Source of the DNA: a virus
Taxonomy: Duplodnaviria; Heunggongvirae; Uroviricota; Caudoviricetes
Virus record (IMG/VR): IMGVR_UViG_2700989168_000004
Length of the DNA: 37,712 nt
Reading direction: 5' to 3' (one strand)
Shown here piece by piece: positions 8,922 to 37,712 of this stretch. Both the position numbers and the translations under genes were made by a program. Below the pieces are notes generated by a model, which worked only from the letters and a program-made list of their open reading frames with translations, did no database searches and was not told the DNA's origin. Every line of letters begins with the position of its first letter. The first letter of the stretch is position 1.

Positions 8922-8922
8922 G

Positions 8923-15776: not shown

Positions 15777-15800
15777 GAACCAGTTCCCACTGCCAGAGGG

Positions 15801-15862: not shown

Positions 15863-15901
15863 ATACCCGCGAAAAATGAAATTTAACCAGGAGTGCCGCA
15901 T

Positions 15902-16487: not shown

Positions 16488-16511
16488 CCCGTTTCTGAAA
16501 ATCATCGAATC

Positions 16512-18245: not shown

Positions 18246-18256
18246 CTGAGGTAATT

Positions 18257-18439
18257 ATGATCATGCTGATTCTCGCGCCTCTGGTGGGCGTGCTGGGTGC
18301 GCTTTTGCTGGCATATGGTGCCTGGCTGATTTATCCCCCGGCGGGTTTTGTTGTTGCCGGGGCGTTGTGCCTGTTCTGGTCGTGGCTGGTAGCGCGATAT
18401 CTCGATCGTACACAGCTGTCTGTTGGTGGAGGTAAATAG
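18257..18439 (+). CDS. hypothetical small membrane protein (60 aa)
   Basis: GAGGT RBS before ATG; two hydrophobic stretches; fills the terminase-portal gap. Confidence 0.4.
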
Positions 18440-19680: not shown

Positions 19681-20308
19681 TGTACCGCTGAGTCTGAAAT
19701 CTGTCAGTGACTCCGGTGAGTTTGAAGGGTATGGCTCCGTCTTTGGTGTAAAGGACAGCCACGATGATGTGGTGATGTCCGGGGCATTTGCTGCTTCCCT
19801 GCGGGCGTGGAGTGACAGAAAAGCGTTACCTGCGCTGCTCTGGCAGCACCGCATGGATGAACCCATCGGTGTTTACACCGAAATGAAGGAAGACGATGTC
19901 GGGCTTTACGTCAGGGGACGGTTGCTTATTGATGATGATCCCCTCGCAAAACGCGCACATGCACACATGAAGGCCGGTTCGTTAACCGGCCTTTCTATTG
20001 GGTACGTCCTGAAAGACTGGGAATACGACCGGAGCAAAGAAGCCTTTCTGCTGAAAGAAATCGACCTCTGGGAAGTCAGCCTGGTGACGTTCCCGTCTAA
20101 CGACGAGGCGCGGATCAGCGACGTCAAGAACGCACTGGCCCGCGGGGAAATCCCCGAACAGAAAAAAATCGAAAGAGTCCTGCGTGATGTCGGACTCTCC
20201 CGTACCCAGGCCAAAGCATTCATGGCCGGGGGCTATGGCGCACTGTCCCTGCGCGACGCTGAGGATGTGGGCTCTGCACTGAATGCACTGAAAAATCTGA
20301 ACTTCTAA
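19658..20308 (+). CDS. prohead maturation protease (HK97 family, S78)
   Basis: Position between portal and capsid; conserved-looking protease core; ATG 19658 with AAGGA RBS preferred over the upstream in-frame ATG at 19622. Confidence 0.8.
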   Translation: MQTKQRLDVPLSLKSVSDSGEFEGYGSVFGVKDSHDDVVMSGAFAASLRAWSDRKALPALLWQHRMDEPIGVYTEMKEDDVGLYVRGRLLIDDDPLAKRAHAHMKAGSLTGLSIGYVLKDWEYDRSKEAFLLKEIDLWEVSLVTFPSNDEARISDVKNALARGEIPEQKKIERVLRDVGLSRTQAKAFMAGGYGALSLRDAEDVGSALNALKNLNF

Positions 20309-20322
20309 TCAGGAGAAATACG

Positions 20323-21528
20323 ATGGCGGTTGATATTAAAGATGTCGAACAGGTCGCGCAGGAGCTGCAGCAGAAGTTTGACGACTTCAAAGCAAAGAAC
20401 GACAAGCGCGTGGATGCGATTGAGCAGGAAAAAGGCAAGCTTGCCGGGCAGGTGGAAACCCTGAACGGGAAACTCAGCGAGCTGGAAAATCTCAAAAGCG
20501 ACCTTGAAAAAGAGCTGCTTGAGCTGAAACGTCCGGCAGGTGGTGCGCAAAATAAACTGGCCACCGAGCATAAAGAGGCGTTTGTGGGCTTCCTGCGTAA
20601 AGGCCGTGAAGACGGTCTGCGCGATCTGGAGCGTAAGGCATTGCAGGTGGGTACCGATGAAGACGGTGGCTACGCCGTGCCGGAAGAACTGGATCGCAAC
20701 ATTCTTAACCTGCTGAAAGATGAAGTGGTGATGCGTCAGGAAGCCACGGTGATCACCGTTGGCGGTTCCGACTACAAAAAACTGGTGAATCTGGGCGGTA
20801 CGGCTTCCGGATGGGTGGGGGAAACGGATACGCGATCCCAGACTGCCACCTCCAGACTGGAGCTGATTGAACCTCTCATGGGGGAAATTTACGGCAACCC
20901 GCAGGCTACCCAGAAAATGCTGGACGATGCCTTCTTCAACGTGGAGGCCTGGATCAACAGCGAGCTGGCAACCGAATTTGCCGAACAGGAAGAAATTGCC
21001 TTTACCTCAGGCGATGGCACCAAGAAGCCGAAAGGGTTCCTGGCGTATGAATCCACTGATGAAACCGACAAGGTCCGGGCGTTCGGCAAACTTCAGCATA
21101 TTGTATCCGGCGAAGCGACCGCGGTGACCGCAGACGCCATTATCAAACTGATTTACACGCTGCGTAAGGCACACCGCACTGGCGCGAAGTTCATGATGAA
21201 CAACAACAGCCTGTTTGCCATCCGTCTGCTGAAAGACACCGAGGGTAACTATCTGTGGCGTCCTGGGCTGGAACTGGGGCAGCCATCCTCTCTGGCGGGT
21301 TACGGTATCGCTGAAAACGAGCAGATGCCGGATATTGCCGCGGATGCGAAAGCCATTGCATTTGGTAACTTCAAACGGGGTTACACCATCGTTGACCGTA
21401 TCGGTACCCGCATTCTTCGCGATCCGTACACCAATAAACCGTTTGTCGGTTTTTATACCACCAAGCGCACCGGCGGCATGCTGGTCGATTCGCAGGCCAT
21501 CAAACTGCTGAAGATTGCAGCGGCGTAA
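20323..21528 (+). CDS. major capsid protein (HK97 fold) with N-terminal coiled-coil delta domain
   Basis: 401 aa; N-terminal 90 aa highly charged coiled-coil-like, then typical capsid core; strong AGGAGA RBS. Confidence 0.9.
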   Translation: MAVDIKDVEQVAQELQQKFDDFKAKNDKRVDAIEQEKGKLAGQVETLNGKLSELENLKSDLEKELLELKRPAGGAQNKLATEHKEAFVGFLRKGREDGLRDLERKALQVGTDEDGGYAVPEELDRNILNLLKDEVVMRQEATVITVGGSDYKKLVNLGGTASGWVGETDTRSQTATSRLELIEPLMGEIYGNPQATQKMLDDAFFNVEAWINSELATEFAEQEEIAFTSGDGTKKPKGFLAYESTDETDKVRAFGKLQHIVSGEATAVTADAIIKLIYTLRKAHRTGAKFMMNNNSLFAIRLLKDTEGNYLWRPGLELGQPSSLAGYGIAENEQMPDIAADAKAIAFGNFKRGYTIVDRIGTRILRDPYTNKPFVGFYTTKRTGGMLVDSQAIKLLKIAAA

Positions 21529-21535
21529 TCACTCA

Positions 21536-21556
21536 GGGGCGCGGAACCGCGCCCCC
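21536..21556 (+). terminator. stable GC hairpin immediately after the major capsid gene (attenuator or terminator candidate)
   Basis: GGGGCGCG-GAAC-CGCGCCCC perfect 8-bp stem followed by CTGTTCTGA. Confidence 0.35.
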
Positions 21557-21577
21557 TGTTCTGACGGGTGAAGAATC

Positions 21578-21778
21578 ATGATCCTGAAACAAGATCTGAA
21601 ATGGTCACCGGACGGTATGCGTGTTGATGTCATTCGGGCCGGTGAGTATGACGACGGGACGCTTCCTGCCCGGGTGCAGGAGATTGCACTTCAGGCCGGG
21701 TTAGCAGAGCGCGGAACCAGTGCAAAAAGCAGTAAAGCGACAAAAGAGAAAAAAGCCACGACCAGTAAAGAGGGCTGA
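21578..21778 (+). CDS. hypothetical small head-associated protein (66 aa)
   Basis: ORF filling the capsid-connector gap; Lys/Thr-rich C-terminus. Confidence 0.4.
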   Translation: MILKQDLKWSPDGMRVDVIRAGEYDDGTLPARVQEIALQAGLAERGTSAKSSKATKEKKATTSKEG

Positions 21779-21780
21779 GT

Positions 21781-22104
21781 ATGCTTCTGACAATGGAAGA
21801 GATTAAAGCCCAACTCCGGCTGGATGAGGATTTCGATGCTGATGACCGCCATCTGCAACTGCTGGCCTGTGCGGCGCAAAAGCGGACGGAAACGTATCTG
21901 AACCGGAAGCTCTATGCTCCGGATGAAACCATTCCGGACAGCGATCCGGACGGGCTGCACCTGCCGGATGATATTCGTCTGGGGATGCTGATGCTTATCA
22001 GCCATTTTTACGAAAATCGCTCGTCGGTTACAGACGTTGAGAAAATGGAGTTGCCAATGAGCTTTAACTGGCTTGTCGGCCCGTACAGGTATTTCCCGCA
22101 ATGA
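21781..22104 (+). CDS. head-tail connector (gp6-like)
   Basis: About 107 aa in the canonical position after the capsid gene; acidic N-terminus. Confidence 0.75.
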   Translation: MLLTMEEIKAQLRLDEDFDADDRHLQLLACAAQKRTETYLNRKLYAPDETIPDSDPDGLHLPDDIRLGMLMLISHFYENRSSVTDVEKMELPMSFNWLVGPYRYFPQ

Positions 22105-22511
22105 AAATTCGTCAGGCGCAGACCAGCGCAACCTACATTCTGCCGGACCCCGGTGAACTGAATAAACGCGTCCTGATCCGCCAGCGGGTGGATATGCCCG
22201 CGGATAACTTTGGCGTGGAGCCTCAATACCCGGTTGCGTTCCGGACATGGGCGAAGGTTGTCCAGACCAGTGCCACCACCTGGCAGGAAACCGCGCAGAC
22301 CGGGGACGCCATCACCCATTACATCACCATTCGTTACCGCCGGGGGATCACCGCTGATTATGAGGTGGTCTGCGGTGACAGTGTGTACCGGGTGAAACGT
22401 CAGCGCGATCTGAACGGGGCGCGGCGCTTTCTGCTGCTGGAGTGTACGGAGCTGGGCGAATGTAGGCAGAGTCACGGAGGCAACAATGACGACTTCCTTT
22501 TTGCACGTTGA
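22101..22511 (+). CDS. head closure / head-tail joining protein (SPP1 gp16-like)
   Basis: ATGA-coupled to the connector gene; size and order consistent. Confidence 0.7.
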   Translation: MKIRQAQTSATYILPDPGELNKRVLIRQRVDMPADNFGVEPQYPVAFRTWAKVVQTSATTWQETAQTGDAITHYITIRYRRGITADYEVVCGDSVYRVKRQRDLNGARRFLLLECTELGECRQSHGGNNDDFLFAR

Positions 22512-22992
22512 TTTTCAGCAGCCCGCGGAGATGCGCTTTAACCGCGCCCGTGTCCGGCGGGCGTTTGTCACGATTGGTCAGCGTCATATGCGTGATGCCC
22601 GTCGGCTGGTGATGCGCCGTGCGCGGTCGGCAACGGGTGAAAACCCCGGTTATCAGACCGGACGCCTGGCTCGTTCGATTGGTTACATGGTACCCAGAGC
22701 CAGTAAACATCGCCCCGGTTTTATGGCACGTATAGCCCCTAACCAGCGTAATGGAGAGGGAAACCGCCGTATCACCGGTGATTTTTATCCGGCTTTTTTG
22801 TTCTATGGCGTGAGGCGAGGGGCAAAGCGTCGTCGCAGCCATCATCGTGGTGCATCCGGTGGCAGCGGCTGGCGACTGGCTCCACGTAATAACTTCATGG
22901 TGGAAACGCTTGAAAAGAACCGCAGCTGGACACGCTATTTTCTGGCGCGGGAATTGCGTAAATCACTGAAGCCGGAGCGACGACACAGATGA
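22486..22992 (+). CDS. HK97 gp10-like tail/neck component
   Basis: Strong GGAGG RBS; basic protein in the neck-module position. Confidence 0.65.
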   Translation: MTTSFLHVDFQQPAEMRFNRARVRRAFVTIGQRHMRDARRLVMRRARSATGENPGYQTGRLARSIGYMVPRASKHRPGFMARIAPNQRNGEGNRRITGDFYPAFLFYGVRRGAKRRRSHHRGASGGSGWRLAPRNNFMVETLEKNRSWTRYFLARELRKSLKPERRHR

Positions 22993-23549
22993 AACTGACG
23001 CCTGTTATTGCTGCACTGCGTGCCCGCTGTCCGTATTTTGAAAACCGGGTGGCAGGCGCGGCCCAGTTCAAAAATCTGCCGGAGGTCGGAAAGCTGAGAC
23101 TCCCGGCGGCGTATGTGGTACCGGGTGATGACTCTCCGGGAGAAAACAAAAGCCAGACCGACTACTGGCAGGAGCTGAAAGAGGGCTTCTCCGTGGTTGT
23201 CATACTGAGTAACGGGCGTGATGAGCGCGGTCAGTTTGCCTCGTATGATGTGGTGGACGATGTCCGGCAGATGCTCTTTAAGGCTCTGCTGGGCTGGAAC
23301 CCGGAGGCGTGCGGTAACCCGATTACCTATGACGGCGGCACGCTGCTGGATCTGAATCGTCATGAGCTGATTTATCAGTTCGATTTTTCGGTCATCAGCG
23401 AGCTGACTGAAGACGATACCCGCCAGCAGGATGATCTGAACAGTCTGGATGAACTGCAAACGCTGGCGATTGATGTTGATTATCTCGAGCCCGGTAACGG
23501 GCCTGACGGCGATATCGAACATCACACCGAAATAACCCTTCCTTCCTGA
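22989..23549 (+). CDS. Mu gp37-like (DUF1834) tail-associated protein, tentative
   Basis: Position immediately before sheath module in a Mu-type tail cluster; family from recall. Confidence 0.45.
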   Translation: MKLTPVIAALRARCPYFENRVAGAAQFKNLPEVGKLRLPAAYVVPGDDSPGENKSQTDYWQELKEGFSVVVILSNGRDERGQFASYDVVDDVRQMLFKALLGWNPEACGNPITYDGGTLLDLNRHELIYQFDFSVISELTEDDTRQQDDLNSLDELQTLAIDVDYLEPGNGPDGDIEHHTEITLPS

Positions 23550-23557
23550 GGATCCTC

Positions 23558-23728
23558 ATGTTTGTCAAACCTGTTAAAGGGCGGTCAGTTCCTGACCCTG
23601 CCCGCGGCGACCTTTTGCCCGCCGAGGGGCGAAATGTTGATGAGAACAACTACTGGCTGCGCCGTGAAGCAGCGGGTGATATCCGGCGCGTGAATAAAAA
23701 GGTGAATACCGATGACGATAAGCTTTAA
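23558..23728 (+). CDS. small ORF preceding the tail sheath (56 aa), tentative
   Basis: ATG at 23558, stop TAA 23726-23728 overlapping the sheath start; not in the ORF track (below 60 aa). Confidence 0.35.
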   Translation: MFVKPVKGRSVPDPARGDLLPAEGRNVDENNYWLRREAAGDIRRVNKKVNTDDDKL

Positions 23729-25272
23729 CACCATTCCGTCGAATACGCTGGTTCCGTTGTTTTATGCGGAAATGGATAACCAGGCGGCGAATACTGCACA
23801 GGACAGCGGAGCATCGCTGCTGATTGGTCATGCCAATAACGGTGCAGAGATTGTTGCCAACAGTCTGGTGCTGATGCCATCGGCAGACTATGCACGCCAG
23901 ATTTGTGGTGCGGGAAGTCAGCTGGCGCGTATGGTCGAGGCTTATCGCCAGACCGACCCGTTTGGTGAACTGTATGTGATTGCCGTTCCTGAATCCACGG
24001 GCGCGGCGGCAACAGTTACGCTGACGGTGACCGGCGCGGCAACCGAAACCGGCACGGTGAATGTTTATGTGGGACGTACCCGCGTGCAGGCACCGGTGAC
24101 CAACGGCGATAACGTCGCGACGATTGCCAGCAGTATCCAGGATGCCATCAATGCCGTTCCGACCCTGCCGTTTACGGCTTCATCTTCGGCAGGCGTGGTC
24201 ACACTGACCGCGCGTCATAAGGGGCTTTGCGGGAATGAAATTCCTGTCAGCCTCAATTACTACGGCTTTGGTGGGGGCGAAGTGCTGCCAGCGGGCGTAC
24301 AGATTGCCGTGGCGACGGGTACCGCCGGAACGGGCGCTCCTGTTCTCACCGGCGCGGNNNNNNNNNNNNNNNNNNNNNNNNNNNNNNNNNNNNNNNNNNN
24401 NNNNNNNNNNNNNNNNNNNNNNNNNNNNNNNNNNNNNNNNNNNNNNNNNNNNNNNNNNNNNNNNNNNNNNNNNNNNNNNNNNNNNNNNNNNNNTGGTGAC
24501 CGAGATGAACGATACCAGCGGTCGCTGGAGCTATGCGCGTCAGCTGTATGGTCATGTGTACACGGCAAAGATCGGCACGCTGTCAGAACTGGTGACCGCA
24601 GGTGACCAGTTTAACCAGCAGCACATTACCCTGGCGGGATACGAAAAAGAGACCCAGACGCCTGCCGACGAGCTGGCGGCAAGCCGTACCGCCCGCGCAG
24701 CGGTGTTTATTCGCAACGATCCGGCACGTCCCACGCAGACCGGTGAGCTGGTGGGTATGCTGCCTGCGCCGAAGGGGAAACGGTTCACGATGACCGAACA
24801 ACAGACCCTGCTGTCTCATGGCGTGGCAACGGCGTATGTCGAAAGCGGGGTGCTGCGCATTCAGCGTGATGTCACCACGTACAGGAAAAACGCTTACGGT
24901 GTTGCGGATAACAGCTACCTCGACAGCGAGACGCTGCATACCAGCGCGTATGTACTGCGCAAACTGAAATCCGTCATTACCAGTAAGTACGGGCGTCACA
25001 AGCTTGCCAGCGACGGTACCCGCTTTGGTCCCGGTCAGGCGATTGTCACCCCGGCGGTGATCAAAGGGGAACTGCTGGCAACCTACCGTCAGCTTGAGCG
25101 TGCGGGGATCGTGGAAAACTACGAACTTTTTAAGCAGTACCTGGTTGTGGAGCGTGATGCCAGCGATCCGAACCGCCTGAACACGCTGTTCCCGCCTGAC
25201 TATGTTAACCAGTTGCGTGTCTTTGCCGTGGTTAACCAGTTCCGTCTTCAGTATTCAGAGGAGTCCGCATAA
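23712..25272 (+). CDS. contractile tail sheath protein (Mu gpL-like); interrupted by N run 24358-24493
   Basis: N- and C-terminal parts lie either side of the gap in different nominal frames; combined size about 520 aa. Confidence 0.85.
24358..24493. other. run of 136 N
   Basis: Literal n characters. Confidence 1.
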
Positions 25273-25628
25273 TGGCCCGTATCGGGGGAACCTGTTATTT
25301 CAAAATTGACGGTCAGCAGCTATCGCTGACCGGCGGCATTGAGGTGCCCATGAACAGGACGGTCAATGATGACATCATCGGCCTGGACGGTTCAGTGGAC
25401 CGCAAGGAAACTCACCGTGCGCCTTATGTCAAAGGGACCTTCAAGGTGCCGAAGAATTTTCCGGTGAGCAAAATCACCTCGTCTGATGAGATGACCATCA
25501 CTGCCGAGCTGGCGAACGGTCAGGTCTATGTATTGTCGTCCGCCTGGCTGCACGGAGAAGCGAACCATAATGCCGAAGAAGGCACGGTTGATCTTGAGTT
25601 CCACGGTGAAGAAGGGGATTACCAGTAA
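25272..25628 (+). CDS. tail tube protein (Mu gpM-like)
   Basis: 118 aa directly after sheath, ATGA-coupled. Confidence 0.8.
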   Translation: MARIGGTCYFKIDGQQLSLTGGIEVPMNRTVNDDIIGLDGSVDRKETHRAPYVKGTFKVPKNFPVSKITSSDEMTITAELANGQVYVLSSAWLHGEANHNAEEGTVDLEFHGEEGDYQ

Positions 25629-25897
25629 TGAAAGAGCTTGAGTTAAAGAAACCGATTACCGCTCATGGCGAGACACTCTCCGTACTGGAGTTTGATGAGC
25701 CCACCGGGAAAGATGTCCGCGAGCTGGGGTATCCCTACCAGATGAATCAGGATGAGTCCGTCAGACTTCTGGCGCATGTGGTATCGAAATACATTGTGCG
25801 GCTGGCGAAAGTGCCGCAAAGCTCTGTCGACCAGATGTCTCCGGCAGACCTGAATGCAGCGGCGTGGCTTGTGGCTGGTTTTTTCCTCCAGGCCTGA
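25628..25897 (+). CDS. tail assembly chaperone (short form)
   Basis: 89-aa ORF between tube and tape measure; ends just after a T TTT TTC slippery heptamer. Confidence 0.75.
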   Translation: MKELELKKPITAHGETLSVLEFDEPTGKDVRELGYPYQMNQDESVRLLAHVVSKYIVRLAKVPQSSVDQMSPADLNAAAWLVAGFFLQA

Positions 25898-26046
25898 CGG
25901 CTGAATACCTCACTGATCGCTTCTTTGACTGCGCCAGTTACTGGCGCATTAATCCTTTCGAATTGCTGAATATGCCGATCAGTGAAATTCCCTTACTGGT
26001 CAGTCAGGCAAACAGGATAGAGCAGGAGAAACGCACACATGGCTGA
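25628..26046 (+). CDS. tail assembly chaperone, -1 frameshift-extended form (predicted)
   Basis: Slippery site TTTTTTC at 25879-25885; the -1 frame continues open (FFPPGLTAEYL...EKRTHG) to 26046, overlapping the tape-measure start. Confidence 0.5.
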
Positions 26047-27874
26047 ATTTGAGCTTAAGGCGTTGATCACCGGTGTCGACAGGCTTTCTCCCGCGCTGTC
26101 GAAAATGCAAAAGAAAATCCGGGGATTTAAACGCCAGGCGGAAGAAGCGTCACAGGGTGGGCTGGCGCTTGGTGGCGGACTGGCAGCGGGTCTGACGCTT
26201 TCCCTGAAATCTTATGCCGATCAGGAAAACGCCGCCACCGGGCTGAAAGTCGCTATGATGGATGCGAACGGCGAGATTGGAAAGCGCTTTCAGGACATCA
26301 ATAAACTGGCTATTGGCCTGGGTAACCAGCTACCCGGTACAACGGCTGATTTCCAGAACATGATGCAGATGCTGGTGCGTCAGGGGATCCCGGCAGAAAA
26401 CATTCTGAGTGGTGTGGGTAAAGCGACAGCTTATCTTGCGGTACAACTGAAAAAAACACCGGAAGCGGCTGCTGAGTTTGCTGCAAAGATGCAGGATGCT
26501 ACCGGAACGGCGTCAGAAGACATGATGGGGCTGTTCGACACTATCCAGAAGGCGTTTTATCTGGGCGTGGACGATACCAACATGTTGTCCTTCTTCACTA
26601 AAACCAGCTCTGTTCTGAAGATGGTGAACAAGGACGGTCTTCAGGCTGCACAGAGCCTTGCCCCCATCAGCGTCATGATGGATCAGATGGGGATGAACGG
26701 GGAGTCGGCAGGTAACGCCCTGCGAAAAGTTATCCAGTCCGGATTAAGCGTTAAGAAAATCAGGGACGTCAATAAAGTCATGGCCCGCCAGAAACTCGGA
26801 GTGCAGCTCGATTTTACTGACGGCAAAGGGAGTTTTGGCGGTCTTGATAACATGTTCAGGCAACTGGCAAAGCTGCGAAAACTGACCGACGTTAAGCGAA
26901 CAGGTGTACTTAAGGCAATATTTGGTGATGATGCCGAAACCCTTCAGGTGGTCAATGCTCTGATCGATAAAGGAAAGGATGGTTACGATCAGATCCAGCA
27001 GAAGATGAATAAACAGGCCAGCCTGAATAAACGTGTTCAGGCACAGCTTGGTACGCTGTCCAACCTGTGGGAGGCAATGACGGGGACCGCAACTAACGGT
27101 CTTGCAGCTATTGGCGGCGCATTTTCTGGTGACGCTAAAAATATCACGCAATGGCTGGGGGAGTTGGGGGAGAAATTCACGAAGTTTGCGGATGAAAATC
27201 CCCGGGTTATTCGCGGCGTCGTCGGGCTTGCTGCTGGTCTTGCGATTCTGAAACTGGGATTGATGGGCGTTGGCGGTGCCATCAGTATTGTCAGCAGGAT
27301 CATGTCGATGACGCCGATTGGCATGATTGCGACGGCGATAGCCCTGGCTGCGGGATTAATTATCACTAACTGGGATGTTGTCGGACCTTATTTTAAGAAA
27401 CTCTGGGAAACCATTGGTCCTTATTTTGAGGCTGGCTGGGAACTCCTTAAGAAAGTTTTTGCCTGGTCGCCGCTGGGGATGGTGATCAATAACTGGGGGC
27501 CGGTTGTTAAGTGGTTTCAGGATATGTGGGACAAGCTGAAGCCAATTATTGAGTGGTTTACCGACAGTTCCGGTGACACGGTCGATGCCATTAACTCTGC
27601 TCAGTGGGGCGCGGGTGCTTATGATGCTTATGGGACGGGAATACCGGCGCGGGGATACACACCTTATCCGGCGGTAGATCCGGCTCAGTCAAACAACGCC
27701 TCCGGTGCCACAGGCCCGAATCCCTTCATGATTAACAAAGCTTCTGCGCCAAAAGTTGATGGTGAGATCAAGGTCTCTTTTATGAATTCGCCCCCGGGTA
27801 TGCGGGTTATGGAAACGCGATCCAGCGGTTTTGATGTCAGCCATGATGTTGGCTATACGCGCTTTGGCAGGTAA
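26039..27874 (+). CDS. tail tape measure protein
   Basis: 611 aa, Ala/Gly-rich with hydrophobic central segment, in the canonical position. Confidence 0.85.
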   Translation: MAEFELKALITGVDRLSPALSKMQKKIRGFKRQAEEASQGGLALGGGLAAGLTLSLKSYADQENAATGLKVAMMDANGEIGKRFQDINKLAIGLGNQLPGTTADFQNMMQMLVRQGIPAENILSGVGKATAYLAVQLKKTPEAAAEFAAKMQDATGTASEDMMGLFDTIQKAFYLGVDDTNMLSFFTKTSSVLKMVNKDGLQAAQSLAPISVMMDQMGMNGESAGNALRKVIQSGLSVKKIRDVNKVMARQKLGVQLDFTDGKGSFGGLDNMFRQLAKLRKLTDVKRTGVLKAIFGDDAETLQVVNALIDKGKDGYDQIQQKMNKQASLNKRVQAQLGTLSNLWEAMTGTATNGLAAIGGAFSGDAKNITQWLGELGEKFTKFADENPRVIRGVVGLAAGLAILKLGLMGVGGAISIVSRIMSMTPIGMIATAIALAAGLIITNWDVVGPYFKKLWETIGPYFEAGWELLKKVFAWSPLGMVINNWGPVVKWFQDMWDKLKPIIEWFTDSSGDTVDAINSAQWGAGAYDAYGTGIPARGYTPYPAVDPAQSNNASGATGPNPFMINKASAPKVDGEIKVSFMNSPPGMRVMETRSSGFDVSHDVGYTRFGR

Positions 27875-27934
27875 TGAAAAATTAATCTGTTAATGAGTCC
27901 CACTCCGGTGGGATTTTTTATGTACGGAGTTTAT

Positions 27935-29263
27935 ATGACGTGGAAAGACAGACTTCAGGACGCGTCATTTCGCGGTGTGCCGTTTAAGGTTGAAGAAGAA
28001 AGTGCGGGAACCGGTCGTCGTGTGGAAACGCACGAATACCCGAACCGCGACAAACCCTATACCGAAGACCTGGGGAAAATCACTTTCCGCCCGTCCATCA
28101 CAGCTTATGTGGTGGGAGATGACTGCTTTGACCAGCGCGATCGCCTGATTGACGCGCTGAATAAACCCGGTCCCGGCACGCTTGTCCATCCGACTTACGG
28201 TGAGCTGAAAGTCTGTGTTGACGGGGAAGTTCGGGTCAGCACATCGAAGAGTGAAGGGCGTATTGTCCGCTTTGACCTGAAGTTTGTCGAAGCGGGAGAA
28301 CTCTCTTACCCCACTTCAGGTGCGGCGACGGCGCAGACGCTGATGTCATCCTGTTCTGCACTGGATGACTGCATCAGTGACAGCTTCAGTGGTTTCAGTA
28401 TCGATGGCGTGGCAGATTTTGTGCAGAACGACGTCGTCGGTAATGCCAGCACAATGCTTGGGTATGTTTCTGATGCGATGAAAGTGGTGGATTCTGCCGT
28501 ATCGGATGCCGCCAGGCTGTTGCAGGGGGATATCTCGGTACTTCTGCCACCGCCATCGTCAGGCAAAAATTTCGTTGAGCAGGTGCAGAAAATGTGGCGT
28601 ACCGGGAAACGCCTTTATGGTAACGCCAGCGACCTGGTCACCATGATCAAAACGCTTTCCGGTGTCAGCCTCGGCAGCGATCTGCAACCGCGCGGCGTCT
28701 GGAAAACGGACAGTAAAACCAACGCCACGGCGACGCAGCAGCGTAACGTGGTTGCCAGCACCCTTCGTACGACCGCAATCAGCGAAGCGGCGTATGCCGT
28801 CACACGATTGCCTGCGCCCACAACTTCCGCGGTGATGCAGAATGCCACAATGGGGCAGTCAACAACACCCGCGCAGAGCACCGGCTGGCCTTCTGTCACG
28901 CATCCGGCACTGAACAATGCACCGGCGGTGAAAAACACGGTTGACCTGCCAACGTGGGAAGAACTGACCGACATTCGCGACACACTGAATACGGCAATTG
29001 ATAAGGAGTTGTCCCGTACAACCAGTGATGCGTTGTTTCTGGCGCTGCGCCGGGTGAAAGCAGATCTGAATGCGGATATCAACACGCGCCTTGAACAGTC
29101 TGCACGGATCATTCAGCGCACGCCGGATGAGGTTTTACCCGCGCTGGTGCTGGCGGCGACCTTGTTTGATAACGCGGCGCGTGACGCGGACATTATCCGG
29201 CGTAATGCCATTACGCATCCCGGCTTTGTGCCGGTGATCCCTCTGAAGGTGCCAGTGCAATGA
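27935..29263 (+). CDS. Mu gpN-like DNA circulation protein
   Basis: Position after tape measure in Mu-type tail module; start uncertain (ATG 27893, 27920 or 27935; GGAG precedes 27935). Confidence 0.7.
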   Translation: MTWKDRLQDASFRGVPFKVEEESAGTGRRVETHEYPNRDKPYTEDLGKITFRPSITAYVVGDDCFDQRDRLIDALNKPGPGTLVHPTYGELKVCVDGEVRVSTSKSEGRIVRFDLKFVEAGELSYPTSGAATAQTLMSSCSALDDCISDSFSGFSIDGVADFVQNDVVGNASTMLGYVSDAMKVVDSAVSDAARLLQGDISVLLPPPSSGKNFVEQVQKMWRTGKRLYGNASDLVTMIKTLSGVSLGSDLQPRGVWKTDSKTNATATQQRNVVASTLRTTAISEAAYAVTRLPAPTTSAVMQNATMGQSTTPAQSTGWPSVTHPALNNAPAVKNTVDLPTWEELTDIRDTLNTAIDKELSRTTSDALFLALRRVKADLNADINTRLEQSARIIQRTPDEVLPALVLAATLFDNAARDADIIRRNAITHPGFVPVIPLKVPVQ

Positions 29264-30339
29264 ACGACAATGTCACGCTACGGGTAAATGGCCGGGAGTG
29301 GAATGGCTGGACATCGGTGCGCATCGGTGCCGGTGTTGAACGACTGGCGCGGGATTTCAGTGTGGAGATCACCCGCCAGTGGCCGGGAGATGAGGGTATT
29401 ACCACGCTTCAGTCGCGCATTAAAAACGGTTCAAAAGTGGAGGTGCTGATTGGTGATGAGCTGGTGATCACCGGCTGGGTGGAGGCGACGCCCGTTCGTT
29501 ACGATGCCCGTTCGGTCAGCACCGGTATTGCCGGACGTAGTCTGACGGCTGACCTGATTGACTGTGCAGCCGAACCGACACAGTTTAACGGACGCTCGCT
29601 GGTGCAGATTGCGCAGGCGCTTGCTGCGCCTTTCGGCATTGAGGTGGTGAACAGCGGTGCGCCGTCGGGTGTTATTCCTGATGTTCAGCCTGATCACGGT
29701 GAAACGGTGATTGAGGTAATCAACAAAATACTCGGTCAGCAGCAGGCACTGGCTTACGACGACCCGCACGGCAGGCTGGTGATTGGCGGTATTGGCTCAA
29801 CGCGGGCACATACTGCGCTGGTACTCGGGGAAAACATCCTTTCCTGTGATACGGAGAAGAGTATCCGGGAGCGGTTTTCTGTTTACCAGGTGGCGGGGCA
29901 GCGTGCCGGAAACGACGATGATTTCGGTGAGGCCACCACCACCGCGCTGCGGGCCCGCACAGAGGACGCATTTATTGCCCGTTACCGTCCGATGTATATC
30001 AGGCAGACAGGGCAGGCTACGGGGGCAGGCTGTATTGCCCGTGCGGACTTTGAAGCCAGACAACGGGCGGCGCGGACGGATGAAACCACCTACGTGGTGC
30101 AGGGCTGGCGACAGGGTAACGGTACGCTGTGGCAGCCCAACCAGCGGGTGATTGTCTTTGATCCGGTCTGTGGTTTCGACAATACCGAACTGCTTGTTTC
30201 GGAAGTCACGTTTACTCAGGACCAGAACGGCACCCTGACGGAAATCCGTGTCGGCCCACCTGATGCTTATCTGCCTGAACCCGAAGCCCCCGGCGCGCGA
30301 AAAAAGAAAAAAGCCAGAGTACAGGAGGACCCGTTCTGA
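29260..30339 (+). CDS. Mu gpP-like baseplate hub / tail protein
   Basis: 359 aa, ATGA-coupled, canonical order. Confidence 0.75.
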   Translation: MNDNVTLRVNGREWNGWTSVRIGAGVERLARDFSVEITRQWPGDEGITTLQSRIKNGSKVEVLIGDELVITGWVEATPVRYDARSVSTGIAGRSLTADLIDCAAEPTQFNGRSLVQIAQALAAPFGIEVVNSGAPSGVIPDVQPDHGETVIEVINKILGQQQALAYDDPHGRLVIGGIGSTRAHTALVLGENILSCDTEKSIRERFSVYQVAGQRAGNDDDFGEATTTALRARTEDAFIARYRPMYIRQTGQATGAGCIARADFEARQRAARTDETTYVVQGWRQGNGTLWQPNQRVIVFDPVCGFDNTELLVSEVTFTQDQNGTLTEIRVGPPDAYLPEPEAPGARKKKKARVQEDPF

Positions 30340-30887
30340 TGAGGACGATTGAAGCCATGCAGCGACAACTCCTCGGCCTGATTGGGCGGGCCGTGGTGAA
30401 AAGCATCAGTGCCGCCACGAAATGTCAGACCGTGGATGTGTCTCTGATTGCCGGTGAACCCAAAGCTGGGGTTGAACATCTTGAACCCTACGGTTTTACC
30501 GCAAGGGCAAACAGCGGTGCGGAAGCGGTGGTGTTGTTTCCGGATGGCGACCGTTCTCATGCGGTGGTTGTTACGGTGTCGGACCGGCGCTACCGCCTGA
30601 AAGGGCTGCAGACGGGTGAGGTGGCTGTCTATGACGATCAGGGGCAGTCCGTGACGCTGACCCGGGAGGGGATCGTGGTGGACGGTGCAGGTAAAACGAT
30701 CACGTTTCGCAATGCACCTGAAGCACGTTTTGAAATGGACCTGGAAGTGACAGGACAGGTGAAAGACCTGTGCGACTCCGGCGGCACCACCATGTCAGCG
30801 ATGCGGCTTGCCTATAACGGGCATCGTCACAGAGAGAACGGTCAGGGCAGTAACACCGACAAACCTGATAAAGCGATGGAGGCATGA
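30339..30887 (+). CDS. baseplate spike / assembly protein V (Mu gp45-like)
   Basis: 182 aa; order and size. Confidence 0.75.
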   Translation: MRTIEAMQRQLLGLIGRAVVKSISAATKCQTVDVSLIAGEPKAGVEHLEPYGFTARANSGAEAVVLFPDGDRSHAVVVTVSDRRYRLKGLQTGEVAVYDDQGQSVTLTREGIVVDGAGKTITFRNAPEARFEMDLEVTGQVKDLCDSGGTTMSAMRLAYNGHRHRENGQGSNTDKPDKAMEA

Positions 30888-31312
30888 TGGAACTGTGGCT
30901 GACGGTGAACGGTAAACGCACCTGCGCCAGCGCACCGCTGGATCCGCTGACCCGCGCCGTGGTGATTTCCCTGTTTACCTGGCGGCGGGCGGAGCCTGAT
31001 GACAACGCCGACGTCCCGATGGGATGGTGGGGGGATACCTGGCCTGCGGTACAGAATGACCGTTACGGCTCCCGACTGTGGCTGCTTCAGCGCAGCAAAC
31101 TGACCAATCAGCTGGTGCAGACGGTAAGGGGGTATATCCGCGAATGCCTGCAATGGATGATTGATGACGGCGTGGTGTCCCGTATTGATCTGGATATCCG
31201 CCGCACCGGGATTAATGAACTGGGTAACAGTATCACTCTCTGGCGTCGTGACGGACCGGTAATGATTTCTTTTGATGATCTGTGGAGTGCGATAACGCAT
31301 GGCGGACAGTGA
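30884..31312 (+). CDS. Mu gp46-like baseplate protein
   Basis: 142 aa; ATGA-coupled. Confidence 0.7.
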   Translation: MMELWLTVNGKRTCASAPLDPLTRAVVISLFTWRRAEPDDNADVPMGWWGDTWPAVQNDRYGSRLWLLQRSKLTNQLVQTVRGYIRECLQWMIDDGVVSRIDLDIRRTGINELGNSITLWRRDGPVMISFDDLWSAITHGGQ

Positions 31313-32357
31313 ATTTCAGCGCCCGACGCTGGCAGAAAATATCAGTATGCTCCGTAACGATTTATTCGCCAGGCTGGACGTCAGCGACACGCTCCGGCGC
31401 ATGGATGAAGACGTGCGGGCAAAGGTGTATGCGGCGGCGCTGCATACGGTTTACGGGTACATCGATTATCTGGCAATGAATATGCTGCCTGACCTGTGCG
31501 ATGAGTCCTGGCTGGCGCGACATGCTGCGATGAAACGGTGTCCGCGCAAGGGGGCCACGGCTGCCAGCGGGTATATGCGCTGGGAAGGTGTCAGCGATGG
31601 CCTGAAGGTGACTGCCGGGAGCGTGATTCAGCGCGATGACCTGGTTCAGTACACGGCAACTGCCGATGCAACCAGCTCCGGTGGTGTCCTGCGTGTGCCG
31701 ATCACTTGCTCAACTACAGGCGCGGTCGGTAACGCTGACGACGGTACGGCATTAATCCTGGTCACGCCGGTGAATGGTCTGCCGTCTTCCGGTGTGGCTG
31801 ACACCCTGACAGGCGGATTTGATACTGAAGAGCTGGAAACGTGGCGCGCCCGCGTCATTGAGCGGTATTACTGGACGCCTCAGGGCGGGGCTGACGGGGA
31901 CTATGTCGTCTGGGCTAAAGAAGTGCCAGGCATTACCCGTGCATGGACATACCGCCACTGGATGGGAACGGGAACTGTCGGTGTGATGATTGCCAGCAGT
32001 GACCTGATTAATCCCATTCCGGAAGAATCAACGGAAACGGCAGCAAGACAACATATCGGGCCACTGGCCCCGGTGGCAGGCTCTGATTTGTATGTATTCA
32101 GGCCGGTGGCACATACGGTGGATTTTCATATCCGCGTGACGCCGGACACACCAGAAATACGGGCTGCCATTACCGCGGAGTTGCGTTCGTTCCTGCTGCG
32201 TGATGGTTATCCGCAGGGAGAACTGAAGGTGTCACGTATCAGTGAAGCGATTTCCGGTGCGAACGGGGAATACAGCCATCAGTTGCTTGCACCGGCGGAC
32301 AATATCTCCATTGCAAAAAATGAACTGGCGGTACTGGGGACGATTTCATGGACGTGA
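31299..32357 (+). CDS. baseplate J-like protein (Mu gp47-like)
   Basis: 352 aa; order and size. Confidence 0.8.
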
Positions 32358-32932
32358 CAAACGATGATTACATCCGTCTGTTGTCGGCACTGTTGCCACC
32401 CGGTCCGGCGTGGTCAGCCAGAGATCCGGCGATTGCCGGTGCGGCACCGTCATTAACCCGCGTTCATCAGCGTGCGGATGCCCTGATGCGGGAGCTGGAT
32501 CCGCGCACCACCACTGAACTGATAAACCGCTGGGAGCGTCTGTGCGGTCTGCCGGATGAATGTATTCCCGCAGGGACACAGACCCTTCGCCAGCGTCAGC
32601 AACGACTGGATGCGAAGGTTAACCTGGCGGGCGGCATCAATGAGGATTTTTACCTTGCACAGCTTGCTGCCCTGGGCAGACCAGACGCTACCATCACGCG
32701 ATACGACAAAAGCACGTTCACCTGCTCATCTGCCTGTACTGACGCGGTGAATGCACCGGAATGGCGGTATTACTGGCAGGTCAACATGCCAGTCGCCACC
32801 AACACCACCTGGATGACATGTGGCGATCCCTGTGATTCCGCGCTGCGCTTCTGGGGGGACACCGTTGTCGAGTGTGTGCTTAACAAACTCTGCCCGTCGC
32901 ATACCTATGTGATTTTTAAATATCCGGAGTAA
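32348..32932 (+). CDS. Mu gp48-like / YmfQ-like tail protein (DUF2313)
   Basis: 194 aa preceding the tail fibre gene, as in e14 and Mu. Confidence 0.7.
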
Positions 32933-32935
32933 TCC

Positions 32936-33586
32936 ATGCATCGTATAGACACGAAAACCGCGCAGAAGGATAAGTTCGGCGCGGGTAAGAACGGTTTTAC
33001 CCGTGGTAACCCCCAGACTGGCACGCCTGCCACCGATCTGGATGATGACTACTTTGACATGTTGCAGGAGGAGCTTTGCAGCGTGGTGGAGGCATCCGGT
33101 GCCAGCCTGGAGAAGGGGCGGCACGATCAGTTGCTTACCGCACTTCGCGCGCTGCTGTTAAGCCGCAAGAATCCGTTTGGCGATATCAAATCGGATGGCA
33201 CGGTGAAAACGGCTCTCGAAAACCTTGGTTTGGGAGAAGCAGCTAAAAGGAATGTAGGTACAGGGGCGAATCAGATACCTGATATGAGCCTGTTCGCGTC
33301 AAGTAATACCGCAACGGCTGCTGCGCAAAAATTTCCGTCTGGATTAATTTTACAGTGCGGTCAGTTGAATGGCTCCCCTAATGTATCTTCAACATACGGG
33401 ATGAGGTTCCCGATGACATTCTCAAGAGTCCTTGCTGTCACAGTTACATTGAACGTTACTGGCGCGTCAGGGCAGCCGACTGTATCGGCGACAAATGTCC
33501 ATAACACTGGATTTGATATTACAGTGTCGCCCGGTTCAGGATATGGTTCATCTGCTGATGCGTATTACATTGCAATGGGATATTAA
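32936..33586 (+). CDS. tail fibre protein (conserved N-terminal anchor, variable C-terminus)
   Basis: N-terminus [22 protein letters not shown]... resembles the conserved baseplate-attachment region of enterobacterial tail fibres. Confidence 0.7.
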
Positions 33587-33590
33587 CGAA

Positions 33591-33941
33591 ATGTCATATT
33601 TTTATTCTGCATCGACAAACGGATTTTATTCGACTGAATTTCACGGCACCAATATTCCTGATGATGCAGTGGAAATCTCGGAATCAGAGTGGAAAACACT
33701 GATTAATTCGCAGAGTGTAACAAAAATGATTACCTGTGGTGAGAATGGTCACCCTGTCATTGTTGACCGTCCTTCTCCAACACCAGAACAATTAGCCTTA
33801 ATAAATAATGAAAAGAAATCTGCACTGATAGCAGAGGCAACGAATGTAATAGCGCCGCTTCAGGATGCGGTTGATTTAGATATGGCAACAGATGATGAAA
33901 CGAAACTGTTACTGGCATGGAAAAATATCGCGCACTATTGA
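33591..33941 (+). CDS. tail fibre assembly protein (Tfa-like)
   Basis: Starts MSYFYSASTNGFY, typical of Tfa chaperones; ATG 33591 preferred over the track start at 33495, which overlaps the fibre gene. Confidence 0.7.
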   Translation: MSYFYSASTNGFYSTEFHGTNIPDDAVEISESEWKTLINSQSVTKMITCGENGHPVIVDRPSPTPEQLALINNEKKSALIAEATNVIAPLQDAVDLDMATDDETKLLLAWKNIAHY

Positions 33942-34167
33942 TGCGTGTTGATATAAAAAATACAGAGTGGCCGAAAAAACCAGAGAGCAATCTATAAGAG
34001 AAAATTCGTTATTGGATGAAAAGCGAGACATCTAATTATAACAGCATATGGTTTTTCTAATGATAGCTCCTTCAACTTTATAGTATCTCATATACTCTAG
34101 AATATAGCTCTAAATGAGGGTTTGTTGTATACGGCAACCACTCCATTTTTATTCCTGATAGGGATAT

Positions 34168-34189
34168 AACCCGTCGAAAAAGACGGGTT
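34168..34189. terminator. hairpin between convergent tail-fibre module and gtr cassette (possible bidirectional terminator)
   Basis: AACCCGTC-GAAAAA-GACGGGTT perfect 8-bp stem; weak U tracts. Confidence 0.3.
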
Positions 34190-34230
34190 ATTCATTCGTT
34201 AGTGTGGTTTATATGGTAGGGGGCAATTTA

Positions 34231-35751
34231 CTATAGGTTAAGTTTTTTGTTAAATACTAATATTACTCTTCCTTCAAAGTTCAAAACTTCGTCAGGCTTA
34301 CCTAATTGTTCTTGAATACCTGCAAGGCAGGATGTCATTTCTTTACATCGTTCAGGTTCGTTAGCTATGGAAACTGCTATAAACTGTCGCTCAGGAGCAG
34401 AATTGAACGCCTCCTTGCTATGCCAAGAAGCCAGTGTCTGTTGTCTCACGCCAGTAAAGTTAATTTTCCCCGAATCAGCATTAAAGAAAACAGGAGTTAT
34501 CTGTATGTCCCCACCAGATAACCAATTTACAGTCATTGACAAATCCCAAAAAGAGCCGTACCCATAATGGAGATTATTTTTTTTTAAAAAATCAATGTAT
34601 GATTTAACAATCTTCTCCTGATCGTGTAATGGTGAAGCATTATTTGTGTAAGATTTAATTGAACTGATCGAAAATAAAAATGCGATTAGATAAAATAATA
34701 TCTTTGCTTTTGTTGATGTACCGATACAGCACAATATCAGTGCGAAACAGGTAACATTCATAAAGAAACGCATGCTAATATAATCAGGGGATTTATAGCT
34801 CAGTATGAATGATGAGACAATACCTGCGATAGATAATAATGAAAATAACACAATATAAATACGGTATGTGTTTTTTTTATTGTCCGATAAAACAAACCAC
34901 GCAGATGTAATAATGGCAATGAACCAAATGACAAATGAGGCGTAAGATGTTGCGTTATTGTCGACAACTAATAAATTAAGACTTTTTCCTATTAACAGAA
35001 TGCACCATTTTGCATTTAAAATCATATCATTGAGTGATACAATTTCAAATTGGTGGGGAGGTATGTTAAGTAGATTTTGCAATACATTGGAAAGAGAGAT
35101 TAAACATGCAAATAGTATTAATGCAGTATGCTTAAATAATTTTTTATCCCATACAGAGAATAAAAAGTAAGATATTAATAGTGGAATAAAAAATGCAGCT
35201 GTAAACCACGGATCGGATACGCTGGAAAATAATGCTGTCAAACTTAAGAGGAGAGTGATAAATATATTTTTATACTGTATGTTGAAAACAGATATAAGCA
35301 AGCATAAAAAGCCGAAAGCGTTTGTTGAATTATGAGAAAAAGGATGTGATACAAAACCATAAGTGTATGAAAAATATGGTATTAGAGATAGAAGTATAAT
35401 AGAAAATAAAGCAGGGGTAAACCCGAATGCCTTACGTAGCGTTAACATCGCTGCTATTACTATAGCAATAGAGAAAACTGCAGTTGATAATCTTAATGCT
35501 ACTAAGCCATCATCACCTAACAGCATATAAAATAAAAAGTTAATTGGGTAAACGGTGAAATACCAATTATCCACGGTTGGTTTCCAGTCGTGGATTGATG
35601 ATATACCATTCTCTAAAATATGCCTCCATACAATTGGGCTGTTAGCAACATCCGGTTCAACTGGAAAGTATCTGGTAGTCAACCAAGTTATTAGGAGTGC
35701 TGATAAAGCCAATAATATTTTTAATGCTGATTGTTTAATACATATGCTCAT
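34231..35751 (-). CDS. serotype-specific O-antigen glucosyltransferase (Gtr type-specific, polytopic membrane protein)
   Basis: 506 aa, many hydrophobic helices, AT-rich, directly downstream of gtrA-gtrB on the same strand; type cannot be assigned by eye. Confidence 0.75.
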   Translation of the reverse strand: MSICIKQSALKILLALSALLITWLTTRYFPVEPDVANSPIVWRHILENGISSIHDWKPTVDNWYFTVYPINFLFYMLLGDDGLVALRLSTAVFSIAIVIAAMLTLRKAFGFTPALFSIILLSLIPYFSYTYGFVSHPFSHNSTNAFGFLCLLISVFNIQYKNIFITLLLSLTALFSSVSDPWFTAAFFIPLLISYFLFSVWDKKLFKHTALILFACLISLSNVLQNLLNIPPHQFEIVSLNDMILNAKWCILLIGKSLNLLVVDNNATSYASFVIWFIAIITSAWFVLSDNKKNTYRIYIVLFSLLSIAGIVSSFILSYKSPDYISMRFFMNVTCFALILCCIGTSTKAKILFYLIAFLFSISSIKSYTNNASPLHDQEKIVKSYIDFLKKNNLHYGYGSFWDLSMTVNWLSGGDIQITPVFFNADSGKINFTGVRQQTLASWHSKEAFNSAPERQFIAVSIANEPERCKEMTSCLAGIQEQLGKPDEVLNFEGRVILVFNKKLNL

Positions 35752-35753
35752 GG

Positions 35754-36674
35754 TTATTTTCTACCTTTCTTCAAAATATACTTAGGTCTTGATTTTGTTT
35801 CTAAGTAAATTCTACCTATATATTCACCGAGAACACCAATCCCGATCAGTTGCACTCCACCCAAGAAAAGTATTGATACAAGCAGGGAGGGATACCCGCG
35901 TACTGGGTTACCAAAGACAAGGGTGTCTATAATCATCCATGCACCATATAAAAATGAAATGCTTGCAACAAACAAGCCTATATAAGTCCATACGCGAAGA
36001 GGAAAGGTTGAAAAACTTGTGATACCTTCCAGTGCCAGATTCCATAATTTCCAGCCATTAAATTTTGAGATGCCAGCAACACGCTCTGCGCGTACATATT
36101 CAACGACATCCGTCTGACCACCCACCCAGCTCAGTATGCCTTTCATGAAAAGATTGCGCTCAGGCAACAGTTTAATGTTCTCCACAACCTCACGAGACAT
36201 GAGTCGAAAATCTCCGACATTTTCCTCGATCTTTGGGGTGCTTATTTTGTTGTGTAATTTATAGAACCACTCAGCTGTCTTACGTTTCAGTCGTCCATCA
36301 GTTGAGCGGTCTGAACGTTTAGCAAGCACCATGTCAGCACCTGCCTGCCACTTTTCAATAAGATGAGGGATAACCTCAATTGGGTCTTGCAGGTCGACAT
36401 CAATAGGAATTACAGCATCGCCGCTTGCATGGTCTAACCCTGCAAATAAGGCTGGTTCTTTACCAAAGTTGCGTGTAAATGACAGCGGAACAACTAGCGG
36501 GTCTGAAACAGCCAGCGCGTTAATAATTGACTCTGTGGCATCTTTACTTCCGTCATTTATGAATACAATTTCTACTTCATATGGCTTCAACTCTTGGAAT
36601 TCACGTACCGTTTTATAGAAAACAGGTATCGCTTCTTCTTCATTGAAGACAGGAACGACAAGAGATATTTTCAT
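35754..36674 (-). CDS. gtrB: bactoprenol glucosyltransferase GtrB (GT2 family)
   Basis: 306 aa with GT2 signatures ([21 protein letters not shown]) and C-terminal TM segments. Confidence 0.9.
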
Positions 36675-37033
36675 TTCGCATCCCTAAAGACAATGAACTT
36701 TGAATAGACGAAACCGCACACCAGACTGATGGCGGAGAAGGTGATAAGAGTGACTATTGGAGGAAGTGAGCATTTATCAGCTGCCCAACCAACAATCACA
36801 CTCAATATTCCCATAAATCCCACGTATAACATGTAGCGCATCGCTGTAGTCGATGCTTTGAATGTGAATCTTGCATTCGCGAAGAAGCTAAAGCTCACAG
36901 CCACTACGAAACCTGTGAAGTTTGCCAGAGCCTGACTGGTATGTGCGGCATAGATACATACACCAAAAACCACCCAGTGTATAAGTGTGTTCAGCACACC
37001 TATAGATGTGTACTTTACAAATAACTTTAACAT
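36671..37033 (-). CDS. gtrA: GtrA flippase-like small membrane protein
   Basis: 120 aa, near-identical by recall to serotype-converting phage GtrA ([27 protein letters not shown]...). Confidence 0.9.
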
Positions 37034-37234
37034 TTATTTAATCAATGAGCTCTGAAAGGCATGAAGTCTATCATCCAAGTCTCAATTGATCGATACTTGC
37101 TATGTCTGATGAGACAAAACTGAGACACATAAGGCCTCACAATGGCTTGCAAGGCTTTACATGTTTTGATGTGGTGGGACGTGTGAGCGCAGTGTTGATG
37201 GGATAATCCTTTGAATTACAAGCGGATTCTTATA

Positions 37235-37280
37235 ATTCGTAATGCGAAGGTCGTAGGTTCGACTCCTATTATCGGCACCA
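37235..37280 (+). other. 46-bp att core identical to the 3' end of tRNA-Thr (thrW-type), not a complete tRNA
   Basis: ATTCGTAATGCGAAGGTCGTAGGTTCGACTCCTATTATCGGCACCA matches the anticodon-loop-to-CCA portion of E. coli thrW as recalled; the 5' half of the tRNA is absent upstream. Confidence 0.7.
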
Positions 37281-37294
37281 TTTAAATCAATAAG

Positions 37295-37669
37295 TTACCT
37301 CGCATTTAAGTAAACTACGTTCTCCTCTTGTGCCGTATTTGTGCCATTGCGACTTATAATCGCATCGATTTTGCTCGCGTGCTCGGTAAGATGCCCGGCT
37401 GAAAGGTGGGCGTATCTTTGAACCATTTCGAGAGTTTCCCATCCTCCCATCTCTTTAAGCGCAAGAAGAGAGACACCGGACTGAACCAGCCAGCTTGCCC
37501 AGGTATGCCTCAGGTCATGGAAGCGGAAGTTGCTAATGCCTGCCCGCTTTAACGCTCCCTTCCATGCCTTGTTGCTGTCGGTTCTCATCTTCCTTACCGC
37601 TGCTGTTTTTGTTCCGTCGCTTCGGTAGGCAGGTTTGGTGTGGACAAACACCCTGAGGTGTACTGGCAA
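37295..37669 (-). CDS. tyrosine integrase, C-terminal catalytic fragment (N-terminal part missing or frameshifted)
   Basis: Contains HxLRH ([10 protein letters not shown]) and catalytic Tyr context (RYAHL); track start is a TTG, and in-frame stops lie just upstream (37679-37681, 37697-37699). Confidence 0.55.
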
Positions 37670-37712
37670 TAGCGGACACTACCATTTGTTCTTTTTTTAA
37701 GCAGCCATCTGA

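Follow-up and report, generated by a model that had tools for sequence, protein, structure and literature searches.

The right end of the 37,712-nucleotide stretch of viral DNA analyzed here (IMG/VR record IMGVR_UViG_2700989168_000004; hereinafter, the window) is very probably the attR site of a gtrI-carrying, SfI-family lambdoid prophage that resides in the thrW gene of a Shigella flexneri-type chromosome, next to an IS600-cut relic of an SfX/mEpX2-type integrase. This verdict comes from comparison of DNA sequences: the hybrid arms of the att site, the identity and truncation of the integrase relic, the partner junction in identical loci and the recurrence of the relic in other loci were all directly observed. 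The site is correctly annotated as the attR of an SfI-family prophage, with a resident integrase pseudogene and then IS600 coming after it, and the junction should not be taken as evidence of an attP site or of an episome. The significance of this assignment is mostly confined to correct annotation. At the tRNA hot spots where phages stack, the gtr-core-int order alone does not separate attP from attR, and the arms on the two sides of the core have to be compared.

The observed arrangement (Table 1) would result from Int-mediated site-specific recombination of the phage's attP with the core in the chromosomal thrW. Prior to integration, the order of the phage attP would be gtrA - P arm - core - P' arm - int - xis. 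By splitting attP, recombination would place the int and xis genes of the phage itself at attL, the distant end, a short way beyond the window, and would leave gtrA and the P arm at the right end, where they would be joined via the core to the sequence downstream of thrW. The latter would be what remains of an earlier thrW-integrated phage with an SfX/mEpX2-type integrase, of which the last 118 int codons survive, cut by IS600, with the rest lost beyond this element. Successive phages would insert at thrW and displace the older occupants downstream, so that the gtr-core-int order would imitate attP by historical accident. The relic presumably came first and the SfI-type phage later, and the attR site is likely to be still a competent substrate for excision. 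Given that IS600 rearranges this region heavily, the relic could have arrived by rearrangement rather than as the original flank of thrW.

Table 1. Prophage, gtr cassette, att site and downstream elements in the window
Feature	Coordinates	Strand	Basis or remark
SfI-family mosaic prophage, window part	1..37280	+	integrated gene order
gtrI, type-I-specific O-antigen glucosyltransferase, 506 aa	34231..35751	-	length and position as gtrI of SfI (JX509734)
gtrB, bactoprenol glucosyltransferase, 306 aa	35754..36674	-	PF00535, E=7e-31; annotated gtrB in SfI
gtrA, flippase, 120 aa	36671..37033	-	PF04138, E=2e-14; annotated gtrA in SfI
P arm (phage-derived att arm)	37034..37234	.	same as SfI attP left of the core (alignment A1)
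att core, putative attR copy, thrW 3' end	37235..37280	+	exact single match; annotated attP core in SfI
int', relic 3' end of an SfX/mEpX2/HK75-type tyrosine integrase; B' flank of the putative attR	37295..37653	-	118 codons and stop
IS600 (IS3 family), terminal 59 bp, end distal to the transposase start	37654..37712	-	truncates int'

Structure of the att site

The 46-bp core, ATTCGTAATGCGAAGGTCGTAGGTTCGACTCCTATTATCGGCACCA, is present in the window in a single copy without mismatches, and 100 shuffles gave no matches to it. All 46 positions of the core are identical to the 3' part of the tRNA-Thr(CGT) gene thrW, and the complete tRNA-Thr(CGT) genes of four fetched loci (L005, L017, L018 and L030; the L numbers denote such loci throughout) terminate in this string; ARAGORN detected no complete tRNA gene in the window. 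The finding that a 46-bp thrW 3' core separates gtrA from an integrase 3' end, which was proposed in an initial sequence-only reading of this DNA, is thus confirmed by an exact match.

Alignment A1 combines the window junction with SfI attP, the attL site of L018, the thrW gene of L030, which is not followed by a phage, mEpX2 attP and one attR from E. coli. To the left of the core, a 201-bp spacer, which doubles as the upstream region of gtrA, separates this gene from the core. Within this spacer, positions 37150-37234 of the window coincide with SfI attP in the alignment, and over the wider interval 36600-37298, the identity to SfI is 99.9%; the entire P arm is unrelated to the 5' half of thrW that occupies this place in attL and in the unoccupied site. 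The spacer contains a single GATC, at position 37088.

The right arm of the window junction is the same as the thrW flank of L030 and as mEpX2, and is unlike SfI attP and attL. The differences include a T/A mismatch between the window and SfI attP/attL 4 nt past the core, and from 37299 on, the window diverges from SfI attP. The segment 37235-37712 is 99.8% identical to positions 10354-9877 of L030, which directly follow the complete thrW beside proA. In the attL site of L018, the 5' half of thrW is located to the left of the core and the SfI arm to the right. For comparison, the SfI-type gtrA-core-int reading expected of an excised circle is …GTTACACATCATTAG…, as opposed to the int'-type reading beside the core, …GTTACCTCGCATTTAAG….

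Recombination between attP and attB classically yields attL with the structure B-O-P' and attR with the structure P-O-B'. By the origin of its arms, the window junction reads as P-O-B', that is, attR, the host side being the old integrase relic; its resemblance to attP is due solely to the chance identity of B' with the end of an older integrase gene. The sequence-only reading, which denied that the site is a host-phage junction, is wrong in substance on this point.

The integrase relic and the IS600 boundary

The integrase open reading frame next to the core begins with a TTG codon at 37669, in IS600 sequence, and ends with a stop codon at 37295-37297 on the minus strand. Because the TTG start and the stops upstream of it lie within IS600, the true integrase coding sequence is limited to the 118 codons at 37298-37653. 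The stops just upstream of the integrase start that had been noted in the sequence-only reading are real, and their presence is explained by their location inside the IS600 terminus that begins at 37654. The encoded sequence is identical to residues 269-386 of mEpX2 Int (118/118 amino acids), compared with 69 of 111 identical residues (62%) for the prophage's own SfI-type Int, and at the nucleotide level, int' is 99% identical to the int genes of mEpX2, HK75, HK542 and SfX; the mEpX2 int record describes the integrase as similar to the SfX integrase. The relic covers only positions 101-170 of the 172 in the PF00589 profile and is missing residues 1-268 of the 386-aa protein, and so falls short of a functional tyrosine recombinase.

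The homology to the intact int genes of mEpX2, HK75, HK542 and SfX ends exactly at 37653. When the 5' part of the mEpX2 int gene was compared by BLAST with all fetched loci, the missing N-terminal 268 codons were never found beyond this IS600; matches were obtained only in L027, L030, L031 and the SfX record, where the integrase is either complete or has other breakpoints.

The sequence at 37654-37712, which opens with TGAGGTGTACTGGCAATAGCGG…, is 98-100% identical to the annotated 'IS3-like element IS600 family transposase' in 2666 E. coli genomes. A complete 1264-bp IS600, with the transposase on the minus strand, is present in L040, which is 99.97-100% identical to the window over positions 22870-37712. 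Past this IS600, L040 continues with 44 bp of unrelated sequence and then a further element of the IS3 family. The remainder of the integrase was not detected beyond IS600 in L040, and no target duplication was detected around this element (the flanking triplets are CCC and GAC); the older phage is therefore deleted rather than simply interrupted. The continuation of the integrase beyond the window, which the sequence-only reading had proposed to look for, is thus missing from L040. By this comparison, IS600, with the breakpoint at 37653/37654, marks the edge of a deletion or rearrangement and is not a simple insertion.

The relic is presumably inert. The idea that int', with its SfX-type arm and the 97-aa open reading frame at 37295-37588 that retains the HxxR and Tyr motifs, alters excision or integration at thrW is highly improbable; conceivable routes for such an effect might include the hybrid attR arm, a patch of homology for SfX/mEpX2-type phages, or a truncated, interfering recombinase. 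If the relic did act in any of these ways, the homology patch would permit swapping of integrase modules, and a non-inert int' could help explain the infection-order limits on serotype conversion.

The prophage body and the partner end

The genes of the prophage are arranged in the order early-left, immunity, replication, Q, lysis, head, contractile tail and gtr, and the prophage is a mosaic. The part that encompasses lysis, head, tail and gtrI (13386-37298) is 97-99.98% identical to SfI. In contrast to SfI, the first 13.4 kb (1-13385; early-left, immunity, replication and Q) have no SfI match and are ∼98% identical to the early region of SfIV, and the tRNA-Asn and tRNA-Thr genes of the published SfI genome are absent from the window. 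The start of the SfI record, which is linearized at cos, maps to position 15852, in the interior of the window. GtrA, GtrB and GtrI are encoded in this order beside the att site, as in a type I gtrABC O-antigen glucosylation cassette; the gtrI region is 99.9% identical to that of SfI, and the gtrI product itself has no Pfam match.

Two genes that follow the Q antiterminator-like gene look like cargo, namely, a lipocalin gene (PF08212; 10469-10993, minus strand) and a gene for a 319-aa protein with 2-thiouracil-desulfurase-like and DUF1722 domains (11186-12145, plus strand); the Pfam labels of both were taken from the identical loci L016-L019. What looks like a frameshift in the tail-sheath gene (open reading frames 23712-24605 and 24235-25272) is a masking or gap artefact caused by a run of 136 Ns at 24358-24493, and in L040, this gene is intact and encodes 498 amino acids.

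The window does not include attL, so the partner junction was deduced from records that are 100% identical to it over 11.6 kb. Positions 1-11649 of the window are 100% identical to L016-L019 and L021, and L016-L019 extend to the left into xis, a full-length, 387-aa SfI-type int and a second copy of the core, adjoining this int. The leftmost part of the prophage, with three small open reading frames, xis, int and attL, is located ∼1.9 kb outside the window; a tblastn search of the window itself detected no xis and no other integrase. The Int protein encoded in L016-L019, that is, the prophage's own, is identical to SfI Int in 384 of the 387 positions. In L017, L018 and L019, a complete thrW comes after int, and beyond it are proA, proB, phoE, crl, frsA and gpt. 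In L016, int is followed by a core-only copy that abuts an integrase of another element; as this left core is not part of a complete tRNA gene, what exactly lies to the left in the source genome is uncertain. The left flank was taken from L018 (CP020086.1) and the right flank from L040 (CP020342.1), no single record being shown with both.

These findings bear on what the sequence-only reading had proposed to look for. A full thrW and a second core are both missing from the window itself, and the former lies beside the prophage's own int in three of the four loci that extend to the left, with only the core in the fourth. That reading had also named, as evidence against itself, a full-length integrase in the flanking sequence and host DNA on the far side of the core, and this is essentially what is found: the integrase lies at the other end of the prophage, and resident relic and IS DNA lies past the core.

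Both ends of the window fall in repeated sequence. The right end is located 59 bp into the multi-copy IS600, and on the left, the window begins within an early-left open reading frame; positions 1-111 are 96% identical to an inverted early-left copy in the relic stack of L040 (17331-17441), and L021, a 37.5-kb draft contig, ends 24 bp beyond position 1 of the window. In addition to the run in the tail-sheath gene, there are runs of Ns at 15427-15525, 15962-16025 and 16421-16484, four in all. The window is probably a repeat-bounded contig or scaffold assembled from short reads, which would explain its resemblance to an arbitrarily linearized phage; the IS600-scrambled stack of relics between thrW and yaiC breaks short-read assemblies exactly at this place.

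Recurrence of the relic in other loci

The exact 97-aa open reading frame of int' was looked up and the matches were compared by BLAST. The same int'/IS600 breakpoint follows gtrA and the core in association with several gtr types: gtrI in L022-L024, a 486-aa, gtrII-size gene in L025 and L029 (AE014073.1), a 437-aa, gtrIV-size gene in L028, and a P22-like phage with a 421-aa gtrC in L026. In L030, this breakpoint is found directly after the complete thrW beside proA. The sharing of one breakpoint across different gtr types and an unoccupied thrW is most simply explained by a single old IS600 event that predates the integrations. Beyond the relic, L026 and L028 contain IS elements and, after these, a MASE2-GGDEF gene, which occupies the position where Sun et al. 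place yaiC. L027 and L031 carry the same type of integrase, but their IS breakpoints differ and lie 140 and 189 bp further inward, and a full-length integrase of the int' type is present beside the core in 273 E. coli genomes.

Alternative explanations

The gtrCBA-core-int order at the right end of the window is the attP order of SfI, SfII, SfV and SfIV, and the 37.7-kb length of the window is close to the genome sizes of these phages, as would be expected of a complete circular or episomal phage that was cut at an arbitrary point and retained a true attP next to its own, IS-disrupted integrase. The sequence-only reading had offered this as one of two options, and it is extremely unlikely: the arm to the right of the core is foreign rather than SfI-type, int' belongs to a lineage different from that of the prophage's own Int (62% vs 100%), xis and the integrase N-terminus are missing from the window (the latter is not found at position 1 either), and the ends of the window do not join, with IS600 at one end and the interior of an early gene at the other. 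Furthermore, identical sequence extends leftward into chromosomal genes and rightward into IS elements, and the gene order is that of a prophage, unlike that of the cos-linearized phage. The other option in that reading, a second, degraded element in tandem at thrW, is right, being supported by the identity of the relic, its recurrence, the truncation by IS600 and the literature.

With such an element present, the order of arrival has to be considered as well. A recent tandem lysogen of an SfI-type and an SfX-type phage, comparable to serotype 1d, in which the second prophage was hit by IS600 and deleted, would make the relic younger than the gtrI prophage. The gtrA(SfI)-core-intX junction is the very outcome that Sun et al. 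obtained upon infection of an SfX lysogen with SfI (panel F), and arrays with full-length second integrases do exist (L027 and L038); the int' sequence is identical in 118 of 118 positions to mEpX2 Int, so that the age of the relic is unreadable from divergence. The recurrence of the 37653/37654 breakpoint behind four other gtr types and beside an unoccupied thrW nevertheless makes a recent tandem very unlikely. An assembly artefact, that is, a misjoin of two core loci by short reads through the 46-64 bp repeat, would be in line with the four runs of Ns and with the coincidence of the window ends with repeats, which suggest a draft contig or scaffold, but has almost no probability given that at least five closed chromosomes (4.4-4.6 Mb) contain the same junction with 99.87% identity over 3.8 kb, and L040 contains it with 99.97% identity.

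Relation to known systems

The junction has already been described in the literature and the arrangement is published. Sun et al. 2011 (PMC3306764) reported that, after integration, the int and gtr genes sit at the prophage's two opposite ends. The legend of Fig. 2 in that paper lists proA, yaiC, IS600, IS629 and a 'putative integrase gene' as conserved host genes, with the putative integrase, IS600 and IS629 located between attB and yaiC. Panel A of the supplement shows a 'putative phage int' right after thrW in the phage-free strain 036, and panel F shows gtrA(SfI)-core-intX between tandem SfI and SfX prophages. The relic int that follows attB in strain 036 reads as the SfI/SfV type, not SfX, so that the resident relic is not the same in all lineages. 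Sun et al. 2013 (PMC3636060) described the same 46-bp core, a 261-bp attP region that is split between the prophage ends, and an integrated prophage with int and gtr at opposite ends.

Among the known systems, the closest parallels to the window are found in Shigella prophages. The attR site of the SfI lysogen (PMC3636060, JX509734) has the same core, the gtrI-gtrB-gtrA genes and P arm at 99.9% identity, and int and gtr at opposite ends. The serotype 1d strain 036_1d (PMC3306764) shares with the window the junction of SfI gtrA, core and SfX-type int, …GTTACCTCGCATTTAA, but the SfX prophage of that strain is complete and inducible, whereas in the window, there are only 118 int codons that end in IS600. 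The degraded gtrI loci of serotype 1 chromosomes (for example, LR213452.1 and CP097828.1) share with the window the right 3.8 kb, at 99.87% identity, including the tail-fibre assembly gene, gtrI, gtrB, gtrA, core, int' and IS600. In these loci, all of the sequence from the attL-side integrase up to the tail-fibre assembly gene has been removed by IS600, whereas the prophage in the window keeps its full, ∼37-kb body. Adhikari and coworkers are reported to have described, in 1999, this organization of the degraded gtrI locus for strain Y53. The same tRNA target and core are also shared with the thrW/ptwF pair that flanks the cryptic prophage CP4-6 in E. coli K-12 and with mEpX2, HK75 and HK542, which, unlike the prophage in the window, are siphoviruses without gtr genes.

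Relics and rearrangements between thrW and yaiC

Between thrW and yaiC, the S. flexneri chromosome consists of stacked prophage relics that IS600 has scrambled, and rearrangement of this region by IS600 is seen in the sequenced genomes L025, L030 and L040. To the right of the relic, L040 (16021-20651) contains a third, inverted remnant, which is also present in L022, L023 and L025 and consists of 119-aa and 101-aa open reading frames, xis, an SfI-type int split by another IS600, and a copy of the core at the end. An acyltransferase gene (PF01757) lies across the core of this remnant in L022, L023 and L029, and in L025, this core is a complete thrW beside proA. The oac1b paper (PMC3630932) was considered as a possible source for the acyltransferase-core-int remnant and rejected, as it deals with a different locus, near torT.

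L030 (CP026799.1) contains, at 6879-10384, a chromosomal gtrA-core-int junction with a full-length, 386-aa SfX-type integrase, which is followed by IS600 and then by inverted int'-thrW-proA; the attP-like order in this locus probably arose by IS600-mediated inversion or by integration via IS homology. Tandem occupancy of thrW is also seen in other loci. In KN150717.1, which includes L026 and L027, ∼40 kb apart, a prophage with a gtrII-size gene is followed by a P22-like gtr phage, the SfX-type int of which carries an IS, and then by the relic.

Many E. coli genomes carry, right after the thrW core or attR, a ∼65-70 bp vestige, ∼90% identical, of the 3' end of the integrase gene; those with the vestige (L011-L013, around 8404-8471; hits H79-H82) then run into genes of the yagP/pao region. 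This vestige is a still more eroded form of the same relic. In the E. coli contig L038, gtrA and the core are followed by a full-length, 386-aa int and xis, and in L006 and L034, P4-like, 404-aa integrases are located directly after attR.
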